Positions 12,623 to 56,706 of a stretch of 64,000 bases of DNA are shown here, in pieces. Source of the stretch: Escherichia coli (lineage in GTDB: Bacteria; Pseudomonadota; Gammaproteobacteria; Enterobacterales; Enterobacteriaceae). The notes below the pieces were generated by a model. That model saw nothing but the letters and a program-made list of their open reading frames with translations. It searched no databases and was not told the DNA's origin. The translations under genes were made by a program, and so were the position numbers. Position 1 is the stretch's first letter. Each line of letters starts with the position of its first letter. The stretch is taken from the NCBI RefSeq assembly GCF_030013595.1, contig NZ_CP122768.1; one strand, given 5' to 3'.

Positions 12623-12853
12623 TTAGTTCATGAGGTTAGTCGCTACCAGATGCGTCAATAGTTTTTTGCTATTAATAATCCCTCTTTTTCCATCGGGAGC
12701 TTTGCACTTGTCACTACCTGGTAACTCCTGGTGGCGTTCCTGTTGCAGCACAACGGAAACAGGCGCTGAACACCTGTTAATTTTGCTTGCAGGTTGTTTG
12801 ATTTCGGCAATGCTGCGGATCATCTCCAGCATATCGGCTTCGGTGATGGTCAT
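12623..12853 (-). CDS. Hypothetical small protein (76 aa) at the distal end of the island
   Basis: ORF with AAGGTG ribosome-binding site 6 nt upstream of the ATG; no recognisable motif. Confidence 0.3.
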   Translation of the reverse strand: MTITEADMLEMIRSIAEIKQPASKINRCSAPVSVVLQQERHQELPGSDKCKAPDGKRGIINSKKLLTHLVATNLMN

Positions 12854-47048: not shown

Positions 47049-48740
47049 ATGAAAACGCTGCTGATTATTGACGCTAATCTCGGTCAGGCACGCGCCTATA
47101 TGGCGAAGACCCTGCTGGGCGCGGCGGCGCGAAAAGCAAAACTGGAAATCATCGACAATCCGAACGACGCTGAAATGGCGATTGTTCTCGGTGATTCCAT
47201 CCCGAACGACAGCGCGCTGAACGGTAAAAATGTCTGGCTGGGCGATATTTCCCGGGCAGTTGCGCACCCTGAGCTGTTCCTGAGTGAAGCCAAAGGCCAT
47301 GCGAAACCTTACACTGCGCCGGTCGCTGCGACAGCACCGGTTGCCGCCAGCGGTCCGAAACGCGTAGTTGCGGTGACTGCTTGCCCGACTGGCGTAGCAC
47401 ACACCTTTATGGCGGCTGAAGCCATTGAAACCGAAGCGAAAAAACGTGGCTGGTGGGTGAAAGTTGAAACCCGTGGTTCGGTTGGCGCGGGTAATGCAAT
47501 CACCCCTGAAGAAGTAGCCGCAGCGGATCTGGTGATTGTGGCGGCAGATATTGAAGTGGATCTGGCGAAATTTGCTGGTAAACCGATGTATCGCACCTCT
47601 ACCGGTCTGGCGCTGAAGAAAACCGCGCAGGAACTGGATAAAGCGGTTGCTGAAGCAACGCCGTATGAACCGGCGGGCAAAACTCAAACAGCGACCACTG
47701 AAGGTAAGAAAGAGAGTGCAGGCGCTTACCGTCACTTGCTGACGGGCGTTTCTTACATGCTGCCGATGGTCGTTGCAGGTGGTCTGTGTATCGCGCTTTC
47801 TTTTGCTTTTGGTATCGAAGCGTTTAAAGAGCCGGGTACGTTGGCAGCGGCGCTGATGCAGATTGGTGGTGGTTCAGCCTTTGCGCTGATGGTGCCGGTA
47901 CTGGCAGGTTATATTGCCTTCTCCATTGCCGATCGTCCGGGTCTCACGCCGGGTCTGATTGGCGGTATGCTGGCGGTCAGCACTGGTTCTGGCTTCATTG
48001 GCGGTATTATTGCGGGCTTCCTGGCTGGTTACATTGCGAAGTTAATCAGTACGCAATTGAAACTACCACAGAGTATGGAGGCGCTGAAACCGATCCTGAT
48101 CATTCCGCTAATTTCCAGTCTGGTGGTCGGTCTGGCGATGATCTACCTGATCGGTAAACCGGTTGCTGGCATTCTCGAAGGGTTGACTCACTGGCTGCAG
48201 ACCATGGGGACTGCGAATGCGGTTCTGCTGGGGGCGATCCTCGGTGGCATGATGTGTACTGACATGGGCGGTCCGGTAAACAAAGCAGCGTACGCGTTCG
48301 GTGTGGGTCTGCTGAGTACTCAAACCTATGGCCCGATGGCGGCGATTATGGCGGCAGGTATGGTGCCACCGCTGGCAATGGGCCTGGCAACAATGGTGGC
48401 GCGTCGCAAATTCGACAAAGCGCAGCAGGAAGGGGGCAAAGCCGCTCTGGTACTGGGACTGTGCTTTATTTCGGAAGGTGCAATTCCGTTTGCTGCCCGT
48501 GATCCGATGCGAGTGCTGCCGTGCTGTATCGTGGGTGGGGCGCTGACTGGCGCAATCTCAATGGCGATTGGTGCGAAACTGATGGCACCGCACGGTGGTC
48601 TGTTTGTTCTGCTGATCCCTGGCGCGATTACGCCGGTATTGGGTTACCTGGTAGCCATTATTGCCGGTACGCTGGTGGCGGGTTTGGCCTATGCCTTCCT
48701 GAAACGTCCGGAAGTGGACGCAGTTGCGAAAGCAGCGTAA
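47049..48740 (+). CDS. fruA: Fructose PTS EIIB'BC component FruA
   Basis: 563 aa, EIIB domains with CPTG cysteine, membrane EIIC domain. Confidence 0.9.
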   Translation: MKTLLIIDANLGQARAYMAKTLLGAAARKAKLEIIDNPNDAEMAIVLGDSIPNDSALNGKNVWLGDISRAVAHPELFLSEAKGHAKPYTAPVAATAPVAASGPKRVVAVTACPTGVAHTFMAAEAIETEAKKRGWWVKVETRGSVGAGNAITPEEVAAADLVIVAADIEVDLAKFAGKPMYRTSTGLALKKTAQELDKAVAEATPYEPAGKTQTATTEGKKESAGAYRHLLTGVSYMLPMVVAGGLCIALSFAFGIEAFKEPGTLAAALMQIGGGSAFALMVPVLAGYIAFSIADRPGLTPGLIGGMLAVSTGSGFIGGIIAGFLAGYIAKLISTQLKLPQSMEALKPILIIPLISSLVVGLAMIYLIGKPVAGILEGLTHWLQTMGTANAVLLGAILGGMMCTDMGGPVNKAAYAFGVGLLSTQTYGPMAAIMAAGMVPPLAMGLATMVARRKFDKAQQEGGKAALVLGLCFISEGAIPFAARDPMRVLPCCIVGGALTGAISMAIGAKLMAPHGGLFVLLIPGAITPVLGYLVAIIAGTLVAGLAYAFLKRPEVDAVAKAA

Positions 48741-48896
48741 TAAAAGGTGTGTTGCAGGGCAGAAATTTTCTGCCCTGCAACATTTGATGCGCGCAAAGAG
48801 AATGACCGGTTTGTGAATGTAATTTTATGAATTTAAATGGTTTTATCTTTTAGTAGAAACCTGAAACTTTCATCAAACACTAAGGTTATTTCCTCA

Positions 48897-48926
48897 AGGG
48901 CAGATTAATTTCTGCCCTTTTTTATT
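48897..48926 (+). terminator. Rho-independent terminator downstream of fruA
   Basis: AGGGCAGATTAATTTCTGCCCT hairpin followed by TTTTTATT; an additional palindrome at 48754-48778. Confidence 0.6.
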
Positions 48927-49163
48927 GTTCCTGTTCTGTGCATCCCGTCACAAATTCCCCGTTTTTATAATTCAGGCATTTAATCGCGTTTTGTGAGCCT
49001 GCTCAAATCTGCCCATTTTGCCTCTCTGGCGGTAATTTACTTTACGTAAAACATGCATACTATGAGCACATGTTTAAATATGAACACATGTTTAAACCGT
49101 CTTTGCAGTATCTATATTCTTGTGGATTGACAGGATTGGTAATTTTTTACCAGAGGACGTGCT

Positions 49164-50105
49164 ATGCGCGAAAAGGATTATGTCGTAATTATAGGTTCGG
49201 CGAATATTGATGTCGCCGGATATTCACATGAATCATTAAATTATGCGGATTCAAATCCAGGTAAAATAAAGTTTACGCCTGGTGGAGTCGGGCGCAATAT
49301 TGCACAAAACCTGGCGTTGCTGGGGAATAAAGCCTGGCTACTGAGCGCAGTAGGCAGTGATTTTTATGGTCAATCGTTGCTAACGCAAACCAATCAATCT
49401 GGTGTTTATGTCGATAAATGCCTGATTGTGCCGGGAGAAAATACGTCGAGCTATTTATCATTACTCGATAATACCGGTGAAATGCTGGTTGCTATAAATG
49501 ACATGAATATTAGCAACGCTATTACAGCTGAATATCTCGCACAGCACCGTGAATTTATTCAGAGGGCAAAGGTCATTGTCGCAGACTGTAATATCAGTGA
49601 AGAGGCACTGGCATGGATTCTGGATAATGCCGCCAATGTACCTGTATTTGTCGATCCGGTTTCGGCATGGAAATGTGTCAAAGTGCGCGACCGTCTAAAT
49701 CAGATCCACACCCTGAAGCCAAACCGCCTTGAAGCGGAAACCCTGAGTGGGATTGCTTTGTCAGGGCGTGAAGATGTGGCAAAAGTTGCTGCCTGGTTCC
49801 ATCAACATGGCCTGAACCGACTGGTATTGAGCATGGGCGGCGACGGCGTTTATTACAGTGATATCAGCGGTGAAAGTGGTTGGTCTGCGCCGATCAAAAC
49901 CAATGTCATTAATGTTACCGGAGCGGGCGATGCCATGATGGCTGGACTTGCTTCGTGTTGGGTAGACGGAATGCCGTTTGCCGAATCTGTTCGTTTCGCA
50001 CAGGGATGTTCGTCAATGGCGCTCTCCTGTGAATACACCAATAACCCCGATTTATCGATTGCCAACGTTATATCGTTAGTGGAGAACGCAGAATGTCTGA
50101 ATTAA
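49164..50105 (+). CDS. psuK: Pseudouridine kinase PsuK (YeiC)
   Basis: 313 aa, PfkB-family kinase. Confidence 0.85.
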   Translation: MREKDYVVIIGSANIDVAGYSHESLNYADSNPGKIKFTPGGVGRNIAQNLALLGNKAWLLSAVGSDFYGQSLLTQTNQSGVYVDKCLIVPGENTSSYLSLLDNTGEMLVAINDMNISNAITAEYLAQHREFIQRAKVIVADCNISEEALAWILDNAANVPVFVDPVSAWKCVKVRDRLNQIHTLKPNRLEAETLSGIALSGREDVAKVAAWFHQHGLNRLVLSMGGDGVYYSDISGESGWSAPIKTNVINVTGAGDAMMAGLASCWVDGMPFAESVRFAQGCSSMALSCEYTNNPDLSIANVISLVENAECLN

Positions 50106-51031
50106 AAATTTCCCCTGAATTATTACAAATTTCCCCGGAAGTGCAGGACGCTTTAAAAAACAAAAAACCGGTTGTGGCGCTGGAATCGACCATTATTTCT
50201 CACGGGATGCCGTTCCCACAAAATGCCCAGACCGCAATTGAAGTTGAAGAAACTATTCGTAAACAGGGCGCTGTACCTGCCACTATCGCCATTATTGGCG
50301 GCGTGATGAAAGTGGGTTTAAGCAAAGAAGAAATTGAATTGCTGGGTCGTGAAGGGCATAACGTGACCAAAGTTAGTCGTCGCGATTTACCTTTTGTTGT
50401 TGCCGCCGGAAAAAATGGCGCAACTACCGTTGCTTCAACGATGATTATTGCGGCGCTTGCCGGAATTAAAGTATTTGCCACTGGGGGAATTGGTGGTGTG
50501 CATCGCGGGGCGGAACATACCTTCGATATTTCTGCCGATTTGCAAGAACTGGCGCACACCAATGTCACCGTCGTTTGTGCCGGGGCGAAATCTATTCTCG
50601 ATTTAGGCTTAACTACCGAATATTTAGAAACTTTCGGTGTACCGCTAATTGGCTATCAGACCAAAGCGCTGCCTGCGTTTTTCTGCCGCACCAGCCCGTT
50701 TGAAGTCAGTATTCGCCTTGATAGTGCCACGGAAATCGCTCGTGCAATGGCGGTGAAATGGCAAAGCGGGCTGAACGGTGGCCTCGTGGTAGCGAACCCG
50801 ATCCCGGAACAGTTTGCTATGCCGGAACACACTATCAATGCGGCGATCGATCAGGCGGTAGCTGAAGCTGAAGCGCAGGGTGTTATTGGTAAAGAAAGTA
50901 CGCCATTCCTGCTGGCGCGCGTTGCTGAGCTGACCGGCGGTGACAGCCTGAAATCCAACATCCAGCTGGTGTTCAACAACGCCATTCTGGCGAGCGAAAT
51001 TGCCAAAGAATATCAGCGTCTCGCGGGTTAA
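50093..51031 (+). CDS. psuG: Pseudouridine-5'-phosphate glycosidase PsuG (YeiN)
   Basis: 312-aa ORF overlapping the psuK stop. Confidence 0.85.
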   Translation: MSELKISPELLQISPEVQDALKNKKPVVALESTIISHGMPFPQNAQTAIEVEETIRKQGAVPATIAIIGGVMKVGLSKEEIELLGREGHNVTKVSRRDLPFVVAAGKNGATTVASTMIIAALAGIKVFATGGIGGVHRGAEHTFDISADLQELAHTNVTVVCAGAKSILDLGLTTEYLETFGVPLIGYQTKALPAFFCRTSPFEVSIRLDSATEIARAMAVKWQSGLNGGLVVANPIPEQFAMPEHTINAAIDQAVAEAEAQGVIGKESTPFLLARVAELTGGDSLKSNIQLVFNNAILASEIAKEYQRLAG

Positions 51032-51124: not shown

Positions 51125-52375
51125 ATGGATATAATGAGAAGTGTTGTGGGGATGGTGGTGTTACTGGCAATAGCATTTCTGTTGTCAGTGAATAAAAAGG
51201 GCATCAGTTTGCGCACGGTTGGAGCCGCACTGCTGCTGCAAATCGCTATTGGTGGCATCATGCTCTACTTCCCACCGGGAAAATGGGCAGTAGAACAGGC
51301 GGCATTAGGCGTTCATAAAGTGATGTCTTACAGTGATGCCGGTAGTGCCTTTATTTTTGGTTCATTGGTCGGGCCGAAAATGGATGTCCTGTTTGATGGC
51401 GCGGGCTTTATCTTCGCCTTTCGCGTACTCCCGGCGATTATCTTCGTCACTGCGCTCATCAGCCTGCTGTACTACATTGGCGTGATGGGGCTGCTAATCC
51501 GCATTCTTGGCAGTATTTTTCAGAAAGCCCTCAACATCAGCAAAATCGAATCTTTTGTTGCGGTTACCACTATTTTCCTCGGGCAAAATGAGATCCCGGC
51601 GATCGTAAAACCGTTTATCGATCGCATGAATCGCAACGAGCTATTTACGGCAATTTGTAGCGGGATGGCGTCCATTGCCGGTTCGATGATGATTGGTTAT
51701 GCCGGAATGGGCGTACCAATTGACTACCTGTTAGCGGCATCGCTGATGGCGATCCCTGGTGGTATTTTGTTTGCACGTATTCTTAGCCCGGCAACCGAGC
51801 CTTCGCAGGTGACATTTGAAAATCTGTCGTTCAGCGAAACGCCGCCAAAAGGCTTTATCGAAGCGGCGGCGAGCGGTGCGATGACCGGGCTGAAAATCGC
51901 CGCTGGTGTGGCGACGGTGGTAATGGCGTTTGTCGCAATTATTGCGCTGATCAACGGCATTATCGGCGGAATTGGCGGCTGGTTTGGTTTCGCCAATGCC
52001 TCTCTGGAAAGTATTTTTGGCTATGTGCTGGCACCGCTGGCGTGGATTATGGGCGTGGACTGGAGTGATGCCAACCTTGCGGGTAGCCTGATTGGGCAGA
52101 AACTGGCGATTAACGAATTCGTCGCTTACCTGAGTTTCTCCCCATACCTGCAAACGGGCGGCACGCTGGAAGTGAAAACCATTGCGATTATCTCCTTTGC
52201 GCTTTGTGGTTTTGCTAACTTTGGTTCTATCGGTGTTGTCGTTGGCGCATTTTCGGCTATTTCGCCAAAACGCGCGCCGGAAATCGCCCAGCTTGGTTTA
52301 CGGGCGCTGGCAGCAGCAACGCTTTCCAACCTGATGAGCGCGACCATTGCCGGGTTCTTTATTGGTTTAGCTTGA
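51125..52375 (+). CDS. psuT: NupC-family nucleoside transporter PsuT (YeiM)
   Basis: 416-aa polytopic membrane protein, paralogous to the nupX product in this window. Confidence 0.85.
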   Translation: MDIMRSVVGMVVLLAIAFLLSVNKKGISLRTVGAALLLQIAIGGIMLYFPPGKWAVEQAALGVHKVMSYSDAGSAFIFGSLVGPKMDVLFDGAGFIFAFRVLPAIIFVTALISLLYYIGVMGLLIRILGSIFQKALNISKIESFVAVTTIFLGQNEIPAIVKPFIDRMNRNELFTAICSGMASIAGSMMIGYAGMGVPIDYLLAASLMAIPGGILFARILSPATEPSQVTFENLSFSETPPKGFIEAAASGAMTGLKIAAGVATVVMAFVAIIALINGIIGGIGGWFGFANASLESIFGYVLAPLAWIMGVDWSDANLAGSLIGQKLAINEFVAYLSFSPYLQTGGTLEVKTIAIISFALCGFANFGSIGVVVGAFSAISPKRAPEIAQLGLRALAAATLSNLMSATIAGFFIGLA

Positions 52376-52442: not shown

Positions 52443-53102
52443 TTACTGCATCATCCCGGAGAATTTATTCTCCGGGTCCATCTCCAGCGCCAGTCCTGAC
52501 AACTGCTTTCTGTTTTTAATTAAATACCCTTTCTTACTTTTAATTAATAAACCGTCGTGAATGAGTTGAGCGATCACATATAGCAAGTGACGATAAGTAA
52601 CACCTAAATACTCTGCTGCCTGGGTATGTTTTTCGTGATAAAGATCACCTTCTTGTGAGAGTAATATAAAAGCTGCCAGGCGATTCACTAACGGAAATGA
52701 TTGATTCTGAGTTAAAGAAACAATATTGCGATAATTTTTATGGCTTAAACTAACGCAGAGTTTTCGTAAAAATAGTGTGTCGTTTAATAACAGCGGACGG
52801 TAATGTTTCATAGGGAGCGCAAGGCACCAACACTCTTCAATAGCCTGCACCGCACGCGGTTCATGGTCTTTATCTATTAACTCAATCTCACCAATAAAAC
52901 AGGGGGCGGCAAAGAAATCGATCAGCGACACGCGACCATTAGCAAGCGTGGCGTAAAGCCTGGCGCGGCCTCGCGTCAGGTAAAACAGCCAGGACGGCTG
53001 TTGCCCTTCCTGCACAATGTAGTCACGCGCTAAAAAATGAAACAGCCGCGTATCGGCTGAAACATCCGTTGAAAAGCAATCCTTAAACGCGGATTCACTC
53101 AT
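52443..53102 (-). CDS. yeiL: CRP/FNR-family transcriptional regulator YeiL
   Basis: 219 aa from [10 protein letters not shown]; cNMP-binding-like domain plus C-terminal HTH. Confidence 0.8.
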
Positions 53103-53270
53103 CAATTGCTGCTTAAGATCATTATTGTGGATTTCTTTCACGATGTTTATCCGCTATGAGATTTCTCATATTTAGCATACTTACGCTGTTGTTAAGATTC
53201 AATCATCGGCCCGGTCGAATTTTCTTTGCTGTAGAAAAAATAACGCAACTGGAAACAGAGGAAATAAACA

Positions 53271-54212
53271 ATGGAAAAGAGAAGAATTATTCTGGATTGT
53301 GATCCGGGTCATGATGATGCTATTGCAATGATGATGGCAGCGAAACATCCGGCAATAGATTTATTAGGCATCACCATTGTGGCGGGTAATCAAACCCTCG
53401 ATAAAACATTAATTAATGGCCTGAATGTTTGCCAGAAACTGGAGATTAATGTTCCGGTTTATGCGGGTATGCCACAGCCCATTATGCGTCAACAAATTGT
53501 TGCCGATAATATTCACGGTGAAACCGGACTGGATGGCCCGGTATTCGAGCCGCTAACCCGCCAGGCAGAAAACACTCATGCGGTGAAATATATCATCGAT
53601 ACCCTGATGGCAAGCGATGGCGATATCACTCTGGTGCCGGTTGGTCCGTTGTCAAACATCGCGGTGGCAATGCGCATGCAACCCGCAATCCTGCCCAAAA
53701 TCCGTGAAATTGTACTGATGGGCGGCGCTTATGGTACTGGCAACTTCACGCCATCTGCCGAGTTCAACATCTTTGCGGACCCGGAAGCGGCGCGAGTGGT
53801 GTTCACCTCCGGCGTTCCATTAGTGATGATGGGCCTCGATCTCACCAACCAGACCGTTTGCACCCCGGACGTGATTGCACGGATGGAAAGGGCAGGCGGC
53901 CCCGCCGGAGAGCTGTTCAGCGACATCATGAACTTCACTCTCAAAACGCAGTTCGAAAACTACGGCCTTGCTGGCGGCCCGGTGCATGACGCCACCTGCA
54001 TCGGTTATCTGATTAACCCTGATGGCATTAAAACCCAGGAGATGTACGTCGACGTGGACGTTAACAGTGGCCCTTGCTATGGGCGTACCGTCTGCGACGA
54101 GCTGGGCGTTCTTGGCAAGCCCGCCAATACCAAAGTCGGCATCACTATTGATACTGACTGGTTCTGGGGATTAGTCGAAGAGTGCGTGCGCGGCTACATC
54201 AAAACCCATTAA
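53271..54212 (+). CDS. rihB: Pyrimidine-specific ribonucleoside hydrolase RihB
   Basis: 313 aa, N-terminal DCDPGHDDA nucleoside hydrolase motif. Confidence 0.9.
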
Positions 54213-54311
54213 GTGTTGATAACAAGCCGGGTCAGTATCGCAAGATGCAGGCCCGGCTATTTCTGATGGGCAGAAAGCCGTCGCCCAAAATGACATGAAG
54301 AGATAATAACT

Positions 54312-55562
54312 ATGGATGTCATGAGAAGTGTTCTGGGAATGGTGGTATTGCTGGCAATTGCGTTTTTGCTGTCAGTAAACAAGAAGAAGATCAGCCTGCG
54401 TACCGTTGGCGCGGCGTTAGTGTTACAGGTCGTGATTGGCGGCATTATGCTTTGGTTACCGCCAGGGCGTTGGGTCGCTGAAAAAGTCGCTTTTGGCGTG
54501 CATAAAGTGATGGCGTACAGCGACGCGGGTAGCGCATTTATCTTTGGTTCTCTGGTCGGACCGAAAATGGACACCTTATTTGATGGCGCAGGATTTATCT
54601 TTGGTTTCAGGGTATTACCGGCAATTATCTTCGTTACAGCACTGGTGAGTATTCTCTACTACATCGGTGTGATGGGGATCTTAATTCGCATTCTCGGCGG
54701 TATATTCCAGAAAGCATTGAATATCAGCAAGATTGAGTCATTCGTCGCTGTCACTACCATTTTCCTCGGGCAAAACGAAATTCCGGCAATCGTCAAACCC
54801 TTTATCGATCGTCTGAATCGCAATGAATTATTTACGGCTATTTGTAGTGGCATGGCCTCGATTGCTGGTTCGACAATGATTGGTTACGCCGCACTGGGCG
54901 TGCCTGTGGAATATCTGCTAGCGGCATCGTTAATGGCGATCCCCGGCGGGATCTTGTTTGCCCGCCTGTTAAGCCCGGCTACCGAATCTTCGCAGGTTTC
55001 CTTTAATAACCTCTCTTTCACCGAAACACCGCCAAAAAGCATTATTGAAGCCGCCGCTACAGGGGCAATGACCGGGCTGAAAATCGCCGCAGGTGTAGCG
55101 ACAGTAGTGATGGCATTTGTCGCCATCATTGCGTTAATTAACGGTATTATCGGCGGCGTTGGCGGCTGGTTTGGTTTTGAACATGCCTCGCTGGAGTCCA
55201 TTTTAGGTTACCTGCTGGCCCCGCTGGCGTGGGTGATGGGGGTTGACTGGAGTGATGCGAATCTTGCCGGGAGTTTGATTGGACAGAAACTGGCGATTAA
55301 TGAATTTGTCGCTTACCTCAATTTCTCACCTTATCTGCAAACAGCTGGCACTCTGGATGCTAAAACCGTGGCGATTATTTCCTTCGCGTTGTGCGGTTTC
55401 GCTAACTTTGGTTCTATCGGGGTGGTGGTGGGGGCGTTTTCTGCGGTTGCGCCACACCGTGCGCCGGAAATCGCCCAGCTTGGTTTACGCGCGCTGGCGG
55501 CGGCGACACTTTCTAACCTGATGAGTGCCACCATTGCAGGATTCTTTATTGGCTTAGCGTAG
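54312..55562 (+). CDS. nupX: NupC-family nucleoside transporter NupX (YeiJ)
   Basis: 416-aa polytopic membrane protein. Confidence 0.85.
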   Translation: MDVMRSVLGMVVLLAIAFLLSVNKKKISLRTVGAALVLQVVIGGIMLWLPPGRWVAEKVAFGVHKVMAYSDAGSAFIFGSLVGPKMDTLFDGAGFIFGFRVLPAIIFVTALVSILYYIGVMGILIRILGGIFQKALNISKIESFVAVTTIFLGQNEIPAIVKPFIDRLNRNELFTAICSGMASIAGSTMIGYAALGVPVEYLLAASLMAIPGGILFARLLSPATESSQVSFNNLSFTETPPKSIIEAAATGAMTGLKIAAGVATVVMAFVAIIALINGIIGGVGGWFGFEHASLESILGYLLAPLAWVMGVDWSDANLAGSLIGQKLAINEFVAYLNFSPYLQTAGTLDAKTVAIISFALCGFANFGSIGVVVGAFSAVAPHRAPEIAQLGLRALAAATLSNLMSATIAGFFIGLA

Positions 55563-55617: not shown

Positions 55618-56706
55618 TTACACCATCGGCACTAATGAAAGCGCGTTATCGGCAGACAGGGTAGGGTTGTTTAAGCTGCCGCTGGCGCGTGAAATTGCCG
55701 CGCAGGCCATCGCAAAACGGGCGCTGTCACGGAAATTGTTTCCCTCCAGAAAGCTATATACCAGGCCCGCCATAAAACCATCGTCAGCACCAAAACTGTC
55801 TACTGTCGTATGCGCTGGCGCTGTCAGCAAAAATTGCTCTCCATTCTTTTCGCTGCAATAAACTGACTCATCGGGCAAATAAACAAACAGTTGCTGAACG
55901 CCTTGCTGATGCAACGCATTCACTGCGGCATTACGGTCAGCATCGCTGGTGATCGCCTGTCCCCATAAAATTTCCAGCTCCGGTAAAGTGGGTTTCAGGG
56001 TGTGAATATGCGCCAGCCAGTGTTTGATTTTGCCCGCTTTGAATTCTGAAACGGTATCGACAAACACCGGGATTTCATCAGCGAGGGTAAAGACCCACTC
56101 CAGCGCCTCGGCTGTCAGGTTGCAATCAGCAAGTACCACGCCCGCATGACGAAGTAAATCGCGCGACCCGTTCAGTAGTTGCGGTGTCAACTGATCCAGC
56201 AGATGGGTATCGTTAATCGCCAGCACGGTTTGATCATCTCGATTGGCAATTGCCAGATACGTCGATGTGCTTTGACCATGTAAACGAACGCAGCCGGAGA
56301 CATTCACGCCGGCGCGGCGCGTTTCTTCCAGGAGCATTTCGCCATAAAAGTCATCGCCAATCACTGAAAGCAAATGGACGTCGCGGCCTAACAGCGCCAG
56401 ATTGTGGGCGATATTGCGTCCCACGCCGCCCGCCGAGCAATGAATTGTACCGGGATGAGAAGCCGCTTGTGGGTAACGGATATCCGCCATCCCGCGAATA
56501 TCCATATTGATTGTCCCAACCACTACGCAGTATTCCTGCTCGGTGAGAATGTAACCTTTGCCTTTAATCCGGCCTTTGCGCATTAAATCCATAATATGCG
56601 CCGCAACGCGCGAACGGCTGATTTGCAGCATGTCCGCAATTTCGTTCTGCTGAATCAGCGGGTTACGCCGTAAAATTGCAAGGATCTCCTTTTCCCGGTT
56701 ATTCAT
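55618..56706 (-). CDS. yeiI: HTH-containing PfkB-family sugar kinase YeiI
   Basis: 362 aa, N-terminal HTH plus PfkB kinase domain. Confidence 0.85.
   Translation of the reverse strand: MNNREKEILAILRRNPLIQQNEIADMLQISRSRVAAHIMDLMRKGRIKGKGYILTEQEYCVVVGTINMDIRGMADIRYPQAASHPGTIHCSAGGVGRNIAHNLALLGRDVHLLSVIGDDFYGEMLLEETRRAGVNVSGCVRLHGQSTSTYLAIANRDDQTVLAINDTHLLDQLTPQLLNGSRDLLRHAGVVLADCNLTAEALEWVFTLADEIPVFVDTVSEFKAGKIKHWLAHIHTLKPTLPELEILWGQAITSDADRNAAVNALHQQGVQQLFVYLPDESVYCSEKNGEQFLLTAPAHTTVDSFGADDGFMAGLVYSFLEGNNFRDSARFAMACAAISRASGSLNNPTLSADNALSLVPMV

Follow-up and report, generated by a model that had tools for sequence, protein, structure and literature searches.

How bacteria control the catabolism of pseudouridine, the most abundant modified nucleoside freed by RNA turnover, is a question raised by a 64,000-nucleotide stretch of an Escherichia coli genome (contig NZ_CP122768.1, assembly GCF_030013595.1; hereafter the window). 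In the window the genes lie in the order fruB-fruK-fruA, a 423-bp spacer, psuK-psuG-psuT on the plus strand and then yeiL on the minus strand, as in E. coli chromosomes. The psuKGT operon (psuK 49164-50105, psuG 50093-51031, psuT 51125-52375) was assigned from the open reading frames, the RefSeq annotation of near-identical loci and the Pfam PfkB domain. The spacer in front of it holds a tandem repeat and also the site of a psuK/fruA single-nucleotide polymorphism (SNP) that is among the most reproducible adaptive mutations in mouse-gut colonisation or long-term stationary phase. The molecular meaning of the SNP and the regulation of psuKGT are left undescribed in the studies reporting it (PMC7518454; PMC9509342; PMC7858067), and a search of the literature for a pseudouridine regulator, for YeiI or for a RegPrecise entry returned nothing. 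Here we argue, with moderate confidence, that the repeat marks a two-site operator of the psuKGT promoter, probably bound by YeiI acting as a repressor that senses pseudouridine.

The repeat (plus strand, 49062-49097) consists of ATGAGCACATGTTTAAAT at 49062-49079 followed directly by ATGAACACATGTTTAAAC at 49080-49097, which would place it at about -8 to +28 relative to the transcription start predicted below. The two 18-bp copies agree at 17 of 18 positions, the last base as first read (T versus C) being left out of register, and Tandem Repeats Finder and a second repeat search both delimit them as 49061-49078 and 49079-49096 (period 18, 2.0 copies, 94% identity). No other 18-bp tandem with at most one mismatch exists in the window, 200 simulations with a first-order Markov model produced none, and by calculation 5e-5 would be expected per 64 kb; the repeat is therefore confirmed and is not a product of chance. 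An earlier sequence-only reading of this DNA had pointed to such a tandem repeat with an ACATGT core in each copy, about 70 bp upstream of the psuK start, and this description is borne out: the core is found in both copies, and the repeat ends 66 nt before the ATG at 49164, which is identified as that of psuK from the RefSeq annotation of near-identical E. coli loci.

Where transcription of psuK begins is indicated by the adaptive mutation. The intergenic SNP 2257444 A>C (psuK/fruA) recurs during mouse-gut evolution of E. coli K-12 (PMC7518454; PMC9509342; PMC10340439; PMC6731689). It was seen in 5 of 7 mice in one study, which placed it in the psuK promoter region and found growth in vitro to be altered (PMC9509342), and a single psuKp A>C allele, its coordinate not compared with that of the gut SNP, appeared in 3 of 4 long-term stationary-phase populations (PMC7858067). 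The old K-12 coordinates were converted to current ones with an offset calibrated on four srlR coding mutations from the same tables, and only an offset of +1978 gives all four srlR amino-acid changes. The SNP then falls at position 2259422 of NC_000913.3 and at 49038 in the window; read along the psuK sense strand, it is a T>G change 126 nt ahead of the ATG that converts TTTACT to TTGACT. As the SNP creates TTGACT at a distance of 16 nt from TACTAT, the psuK promoter is placed here, and the geometry of the hexamers together with the adaptive SNP predicts a start at ~49070. The -35 hexamer TTTACT (49036-49041) and the -10 hexamer TACTAT (49058-49063), both on the plus strand, have the layout of a sigma-70 promoter, and the selected mutation goes toward the consensus (TTGACT). 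The gut-adaptive psuK/fruA SNP is thus read from the sequence as an up-mutation of the -35 element. Laboratory strains S17-1, ST18, ER1821R and ER2683 are fixed for the identical TTGACT allele, which the pigeon isolate fEC.1 also carries.

Conservation across enteric relatives was read from an alignment of 13 sequences from five genera. Besides E. coli, orthologous loci were taken from other Escherichia clades and E. albertii, from four Citrobacter and two Buttiauxella, and from one Raoultella metagenome-assembled genome (MAG). The invariant columns form discrete blocks, namely a CRP-like box, the -35, the -10, two sites within the repeat, and a hairpin with the Shine-Dalgarno sequence before the ATG. 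Identity is 0.97 in the -35 (TTTAC invariant), 0.95 in the -10 (TA..AT invariant), 0.88 in the CRP-like box and 0.87 in each of the two sites, against 0.65-0.78 in the spacers and downstream leader; the site cores stand at 0.87 versus 0.65-0.72 in the adjacent segments, and the CRP-like box at a mean of 0.88 versus 0.69 in the spacer after it. The CRP-like box, TGTGAGCCTGCTCAAA at 48992-49007 on the plus strand, has TTGTGA and TCA.ATCT invariant in all 13 upstream regions and takes the form TGTGAttctgtTCATA in Citrobacter and Buttiauxella. Read as TGTGAgcctgcTCAAA, it matches TGTGA-N6-TCACA at 9 of 10 positions, and its centre at 48999.5 lies at -70.5 from the predicted start, a class I position. 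The two candidate operator sites would be centred at about -0.5 and +17.5, the position of a repressor.

A different promoter would change the meaning of the repeat. A consensus scan gives 9 of 12 matches for TTTAAA (-35, 49091-49096) and TATATT (-10, 49113-49118), with repeat 2 supplying the -35, and the repeat would then lie upstream of or overlap this promoter and serve as an activator site or UP-like element. We consider this very unlikely, since promoter-like hits are as numerous as expected from shuffling and neither hexamer is kept in B2 E. coli, E. albertii, Citrobacter, Buttiauxella or Raoultella, though the two sites are. Moreover, the adaptive SNP improves a different -35, 53 bp further upstream. 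TTTAAA/TATATT was accordingly rejected as the main promoter, its hit count being that of shuffled sequence and its hexamers being unconserved outside K-12-type alleles. The K-12-type duplication does create a promoter-like TTTAAA / 16 nt / TATATT at 49091-49118 that is missing from other alleles, and this could be a lineage-specific second promoter. One strain carries a 14-bp deletion between repeat 2 and TATATT.

Returning to the two-site operator, the candidate sites, to which no strand is assigned, are GAGCA-CA-TGTTT at 49064-49075 (site 1; core 49065-49074, centre 49069.5) and GAACA-CA-TGTTT at 49082-49093 (site 2; core 49083-49092, centre 49087.5). Across the 13 sequences A.CA..TGTT is invariant at site 1, with CA, TG or CG as the central dinucleotide, and GAACA..TG.T is invariant at site 2. 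The conserved unit is neither the 18-mer nor the ACATGT hexamer; it is a palindrome of 10-12 bp, (A)AACA-YR-TGTT(T), which occurs twice with centres 18 bp apart. Each site shows the dyad symmetry AACA-NN-TGTT, and the separation of 18 bp becomes 19 bp in three genera. With this 18/19-bp spacing and the free YR centre, a pair of separate dimer sites is a better fit than a single long palindrome. Site 1 of the K-12-type allele has one mismatch to AACANNTGTT and is exact in B2, Citrobacter and Buttiauxella, and site 2 is an exact AACANNTGTT in the window and has TGCT in other taxa. The suggestion of the sequence-only reading that the repeat is an operator pair for a regulator of the psu operon is supported by this comparative evidence for a conserved two-site cis-element at the psuK promoter. 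What stands is the pair of sites; what has to be revised is the unit, now the short palindrome, and the position, since the sites would lie on -10/+1/+20 and not upstream of the promoter.

Near-identity over the full 18-mer is confined to non-B2 Escherichia. Of 4213 matching E. coli genomes, 2781 have the exact 78-mer that holds the repeat; among 5426 complete E. coli genomes, ~1200 (B2/ST131) have a divergent spacer allele, only 74% identical, in which the repeat cores alone are retained. Further, CTCTAAT follows site 2 in Citrobacter, Buttiauxella, Raoultella, E. albertii and B2 E. coli. Since the 18-mer copies are alike only in non-B2 Escherichia and the cores are shared widely, the near-perfect 18-bp tandem duplication is read as a derived feature of non-B2 Escherichia, the homogenisation of an older two-site element. 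The same restriction to non-B2 Escherichia, together with an ATG-started frame of 22 codons from 49062, could be taken to mean that the 18 bp were duplicated recently and have no function, or that they belong to a small open reading frame (MSTCLNMNTCLN...). The cores are invariant over five genera and recur in seven more, which makes this highly improbable. The small frame itself (MSTCLNMNTCLNRLCSIYILVD, then a stop) was rejected, as Buttiauxella lacks the ATG and neither length nor residues are conserved.

The spacer alleles have a distribution of their own. In the fruA-psuK spacer, the B2/ST131 and K-12-type alleles share only ~74% identity; the former is near-identical to the E. albertii allele and has sequences resembling repetitive extragenic palindromes (REP-like), and E. 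whittamii and a cryptic-clade strain carry the K-12-type allele. This distribution suggests an old polymorphism or exchange between species.

Which protein might read the palindromes is suggested by more distant genera. Homologs combining a winged helix with a PfkB domain are widespread, and in Yersinia, Serratia, Xenorhabdus, Pasteurella, Shewanella, Aliivibrio and Ferrimonas (7 of 7) such a winged helix-turn-helix (wHTH)-PfkB protein is encoded by the first gene of the psuG(-psuT) operon; psuT is usually in the operon, and a separate psuK was not found nearby. Motifs were counted in the 185-300 nt upstream of 12 psu operons with a fused or linked wHTH-PfkB gene. The exact AACANNTGTT occurs in 11 of the 12 regions, shuffling giving ~0.01 per region, and pairs 18-19 bp apart in 8 of the 12 (shuffle P <=0.0005 per region), the spacing being 18 bp in the enteric group and Pasteurella and 19 bp in Shewanella, Aliivibrio and Ferrimonas. 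The 253 kb of DNA compared hold 15 pairs spaced at 18-19 bp, all of them at psu promoters. As controls, the psuKGT operons of Aeromonas jandaei, a Pasteurellaceae MAG and Bartonella sp. HY038, whose kinase lacks the HTH and whose flanks carry no yeiI over 6 kb, show neither an exact motif nor a pair in the 400 nt upstream. The exact motif is thus found in 11/12 regions with wHTH-PfkB versus 0/3 without, in a small sample whose controls were inspected over +/-6 kb. The most telling of the control comparisons is that within the Pasteurellaceae, where the pair accompanies the fused protein and is missing from the operon with the HTH-less kinase. Because the motif is present with the winged-helix kinase and absent without it, it appears tied to the wHTH-PfkB protein. 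Single exact copies of AACANNTGTT also occur in the window at 12769, 33446 and 59029, all unpaired; a few singles per 64 kb are about what chance gives.

In E. coli a protein of this type is YeiI (362 aa; 55618-56706, minus strand), which we propose as the operator-binding regulator. It joins a winged helix at residues 1-48 (Pfam HTH_24, 1.2e-10) to a PfkB pseudouridine-kinase-like domain (PfkB, 7.6e-68) that is 40% identical to PsuK, and it has been described as uncharacterised (PMC9061257) and as a hypothetical transcription factor (PMC6055005). In E. coli yeiI lies 3.2 kb downstream of psuT. In Citrobacter and Buttiauxella a convergent gene of 362-364 aa, 80% identical to the yeiI of the window, adjoins psuT, and in Salmonella psuK-psuG-psuT and yeiI stand together in an unrelated neighbourhood. 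Thus yeiI adjoins psuT in three genera, alongside the fused genes that lead the psuG operon in 7 of 7. Between psuT and yeiI in the window lies yeiL-rihB-nupX (52443-55562), a block missing there in Citrobacter, Buttiauxella and Salmonella, so that the Escherichia block looks like an insertion into a psuKGT/yeiI module.

The YeiL protein encoded in that block had been named in the sequence-only reading, with YeiE and YeiI, among the neighbouring regulators. The evidence points to YeiI, and YeiL and YeiE find no support as the binding protein. It is conceivable that the operator is real and its binder is not YeiI, for instance YeiL acting through the inner inverted repeat TGTTT-N6-GAACA, or an unlinked DeoR or CytR. 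YeiL belongs to the CRP/FNR family, its gene lies 68 bp past psuT in E. coli, and the inner element TGTTTAAATATGAACA has CRP-like 5-N6-5 geometry, its TGTT...AACA ends also recalling the DeoR operator. We regard such a binder as unlikely. Citrobacter, Buttiauxella and Salmonella keep the whole element in loci that are without yeiL-rihB-nupX, and the 19-bp spacing of Shewanella, Aliivibrio and Ferrimonas turns the inner repeat into N7, at odds with the fixed spacing of CRP/FNR sites; YeiL is unlikely because the element stays intact without yeiL in the locus and the inner spacing is not fixed. Further, the six inner bases are unconserved, the motif was not found before yeiL, rihB or nupX, and it tracks the presence of wHTH-PfkB. 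Comparison with YeiL, DeoR, Cra and PurR-like motifs gave partial end matches only, with misfits in spacing or inner bases. The DeoR operator TGTTAGAA.TTCTAACA is that of nucleoside catabolism genes; the 16-bp TGTTTAAATATGAACA at psuK is like it in its outer TGTT/AACA and in the nucleoside-catabolism context, and unlike it in matching at only 11 of 16 positions, in having its inner eight positions variable among psuK orthologs and in having N9 spacing in other genera.

For YeiI, conserved residues and modelled folds bear on both DNA and ligand. In the winged helix R4, P16, Q20, R31, S32, A35, I38, K44, G45 and G49-Y52 are invariant in 57 homologs, and 16 positions are invariant among 31 non-redundant N-terminal domains. 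The AlphaFold2 (AF2) model of YeiI has a predicted local distance difference test score (pLDDT) of 90.9, and its body superposes on the solved structure of EcPUKI with a template modelling (TM) score of 0.95. No solved structure includes this winged helix; modelled alone it gives, with the full model, a pLDDT range of 88-91, and its nearest folds are the Lrp/AsnC and MarR DNA-binding domains. In EcPUKI the residues contacting pseudouridine are Asn14 and Asp16 (ribose) and Ser30, Asn143 and Lys170 (base), with Asp256 as the catalytic base, and pseudouridine closes the beta-clasp dimer via Ser30 (PMC9061257). All of these hallmark residues (N14, D16, S30, N143, K170, D256) are kept in YeiI and in the fused forms, and from these and the modelled fold the ligand pocket of YeiI is predicted to fit pseudouridine. 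YeiI orthologs also differ from all fused forms and PsuKs by fixed changes, including G255D (GAGD to GADD, beside the catalytic Asp), N250D and M114T. The fused proteins are 58-60% identical to PsuK versus ~50% to YeiI and are thus nearer to PsuK, so YeiI would be the faster-evolving copy.

Taken together, we propose that the psu system is governed by a repressor that derives from an enzyme, senses a ligand and acts through a two-site operator on a promoter assisted by CRP. The data show the repeat, its conservation, the link of the motif to the winged-helix protein and the place of the adaptive SNP; the start site, the binding of the protein, the direction of regulation and the effector are what we infer. 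A weak sigma-70 promoter (TTTACT/16 nt/TACTAT), with a CRP-like box at class I distance, would drive psuKGT for the uptake and catabolism of pseudouridine. One YeiI dimer would occupy each palindrome, at about -0.5 and +17.5, and block the binding or escape of RNA polymerase. Pseudouridine or its 5'-phosphate would bind the kinase-like domain, upon which YeiI would leave the DNA. Since YeiI keeps all the pseudouridine-recognition residues of PsuK, its dimer would release on ligand, possibly through ligand-induced closure of the beta-clasp, as shown crystallographically for PsuK, the shift repositioning the two winged helices. In Yersinia, Serratia, Xenorhabdus, Pasteurella, Shewanella, Aliivibrio and Ferrimonas the fused winged helix and kinase would autoregulate its own operon, and in Escherichia, Citrobacter, Buttiauxella and Salmonella the roles would be split between an enzyme-only PsuK and the regulator paralog YeiI.

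Several observations weigh against this proposal. The enteric sequences compared share ancestry and are phylogenetically non-independent, and the HTH-less control genomes could carry a YeiI-like gene outside the +/-6 kb inspected. Yersinia, Serratia and Xenorhabdus have a single extended site only, of the palindrome type AACCAAACA-NN-TGTTTGGTT, 250-285 nt before the ATG. The half-sites are separated by only ~6-7 bp, a short distance for many wHTH dimers, and no copy of the motif was found upstream of yeiI or elsewhere in the yeiL-nfo region. Moreover, gut-evolution experiments hit the repressor genes frlR, dgoR and srlR by loss-of-function mutations and psuK only by the -35 SNP, and no yeiI mutation is reported in those studies. 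Loss of YeiI may be insufficient or of no benefit, for instance because the promoter is weak and, as predicted, dependent on CRP, because gut pseudouridine is already inducing, or because YeiI has a second role. As to the three genera with a single site, they also share a common block, CTTACGATC(A/G)nnTTC(T/C)C(C/A)A, ~60-75 nt before the wHTH-psuK ATG and far downstream of the palindrome.

The palindromes could also act as RNA. The self-complementary copies would then fold the 5' end of the psuK mRNA into a stem-loop and affect the stability or translation of the message, no DNA-binding protein being involved. The leader from 49070 does fold with an 11-bp hairpin (49072-82/49087-97; -28.5 kcal/mol, z = -3.55), site 1 can pair with site 2 in most other taxa on reading the alignment with G-U pairs included, and the sites lie <60 nt from the start codon in several distant genera. 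Such a hairpin is automatic for any two copies of a palindrome, however, and its pairing register varies between alleles; the K-12-type centre dinucleotides (CA/CA) stay unpaired, the Pasteurella pair has three central mismatches, and Yersinia, Serratia and Xenorhabdus have a single site. No Rfam match supports it, and the absence of the motif where the winged helix is absent is left unexplained, so that an RNA element appears distinctly unlikely. Rfam covariance models run against 48650-49250 gave no match, only two sub-threshold chance hits.

A separate hairpin lies nearer the start codon. The conserved 5' untranslated element on the plus strand (49137-49157) consists of TGGTAA-TTTT-TTACCA (49137-49152) followed by the Shine-Dalgarno sequence GAGGA (49153-49157). 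By explicit pair count 98% of its cells are paired, versus 20-76% in slid controls, and compensatory changes affect 2 of 6 pairs, with G-U intermediates present: pair 4 is U-A in the K-12 type, C-G in other taxa and U.G in E. albertii, and pair 6 is A-U, with U-A in Salmonella and G.U in Buttiauxella. The segment 49137-49152 looks like an RNA stem in the psuK leader.

The proposed YeiI-operator system resembles known ones in parts. The E. coli ROK repressors NagC and Mlc have an N-terminal winged helix on a sugar-kinase-fold sensor, repress operons for catabolism or uptake via paired operators at CRP-dependent promoters and coexist with the enzyme-only paralogs NagK and Glk. YeiI is like them in having a winged helix on a kinase-fold sensor, an enzyme-only paralog alongside and paired sites, its binding being predicted. 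NagC and Mlc differ in fold (ROK/ASKHA, not PfkB/ribokinase) and in their operators, which are 23-bp AT-rich palindromes lying far apart and involve DNA looping; they are not known to have any relation to pseudouridine. BirA, NadR and the archaeal RbkR (riboflavin kinase with a wHTH) are enzymes with an N-terminal (w)HTH that control genes of their own pathway, and the fused wHTH-PsuK of Yersinia, Pasteurella, Shewanella and others has the same layout, its gene standing at the head of the operon that it is predicted to control. BirA, NadR and RbkR have other enzyme folds, ligands and motifs than the psu proteins, and in E. coli the roles appear split between two paralogs. For the DNA-binding domain, the nearest structural neighbours of YeiI are Lrp/AsnC proteins (ST1022, LrpA, AsnC and the PH1519/FL11-DNA complex 2e1c; TM ~0.78, 1.2 A, <=35-37% identity), with weak Foldseek E-values of 0.06-0.4 for the 58-residue winged helix. 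Dimers of such feast/famine regulatory proteins read palindromes of ~13 bp, a size like that of AAACA-YR-TGTTT. YeiI is unlike Lrp/AsnC in its effector domain, which is PfkB and not RAM, and no octamer or DNA wrapping is implied. The promoter itself is like that of lac in its weak -35, a CRP-like box ~70 bp before the predicted start and a candidate operator over the start, and unlike it in having two adjoining short operators instead of one long operator with distant auxiliaries and a regulator of another family, the role of CRP at psuK being predicted.

The analysis explains one of the recurrent SNPs of experimental evolution as a putative -35 up-mutation and divides the promoter into a CRP-like box, a weak core and a two-site candidate operator. 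It also gives a y-gene a testable role, that of YeiI as a pseudouridine-responsive regulator, and if YeiI is indeed the sensor, the gut-adaptive -35 mutation would override both YeiI repression and CRP dependence. If true, an Lrp/AsnC-type winged helix on a PfkB kinase, in fused and split versions in related bacteria, might be a new architecture among enzyme-derived transcription factors. More tentatively, YeiI and its fused relatives may constitute a family, so far undescribed, of transcription factors that sense nucleosides and are built on the fold of pseudouridine kinase; the ancestor would have been a bifunctional kinase and psu autorepressor, duplicated in Escherichia/Citrobacter/Salmonella, with YeiI (GADD) left mainly as a sensor on two AACA-YR-TGTT operators. 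In practical terms, this bears on pseudouridine-producing strains for mRNA manufacture, in which psuK, psuG and psuT are routinely manipulated.

Control of psuKGT by LexA and the SOS response was considered because, in recA mutants of clinical E. coli under ciprofloxacin, the most reduced proteins include PsuG (log2 fold change down to -6) and PsuK (PMC11039860). It was rejected, the sites being TGT-N10-ACA and not CTGT-N8-ACAG, with no LexA box seen at the psuK promoter.

Finally, the spacer shows other variation and structure. An IS200/IS605 insertion lies in the fruA-psuK spacer of NZ_CM149870.1, a strain otherwise 100% identical to the window, and in strain EC291 (NZ_AP027445.1) an IS1 takes the place of the operator, of psuK and of the 5' portion of psuG from about window position 49056 onward. 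Two related terminator-like hairpins built on GGGCAGA...TCTGCCC lie at 48750-48782 and 48896-48919; the second, ~110 nt past the fruA terminator, has a T-run, and its GGGCAGA/TCTGCCC core is kept in the divergent B2 allele. In one RefSeq genome a hypothetical protein of 48 aa is annotated on the opposite strand of this hairpin region.

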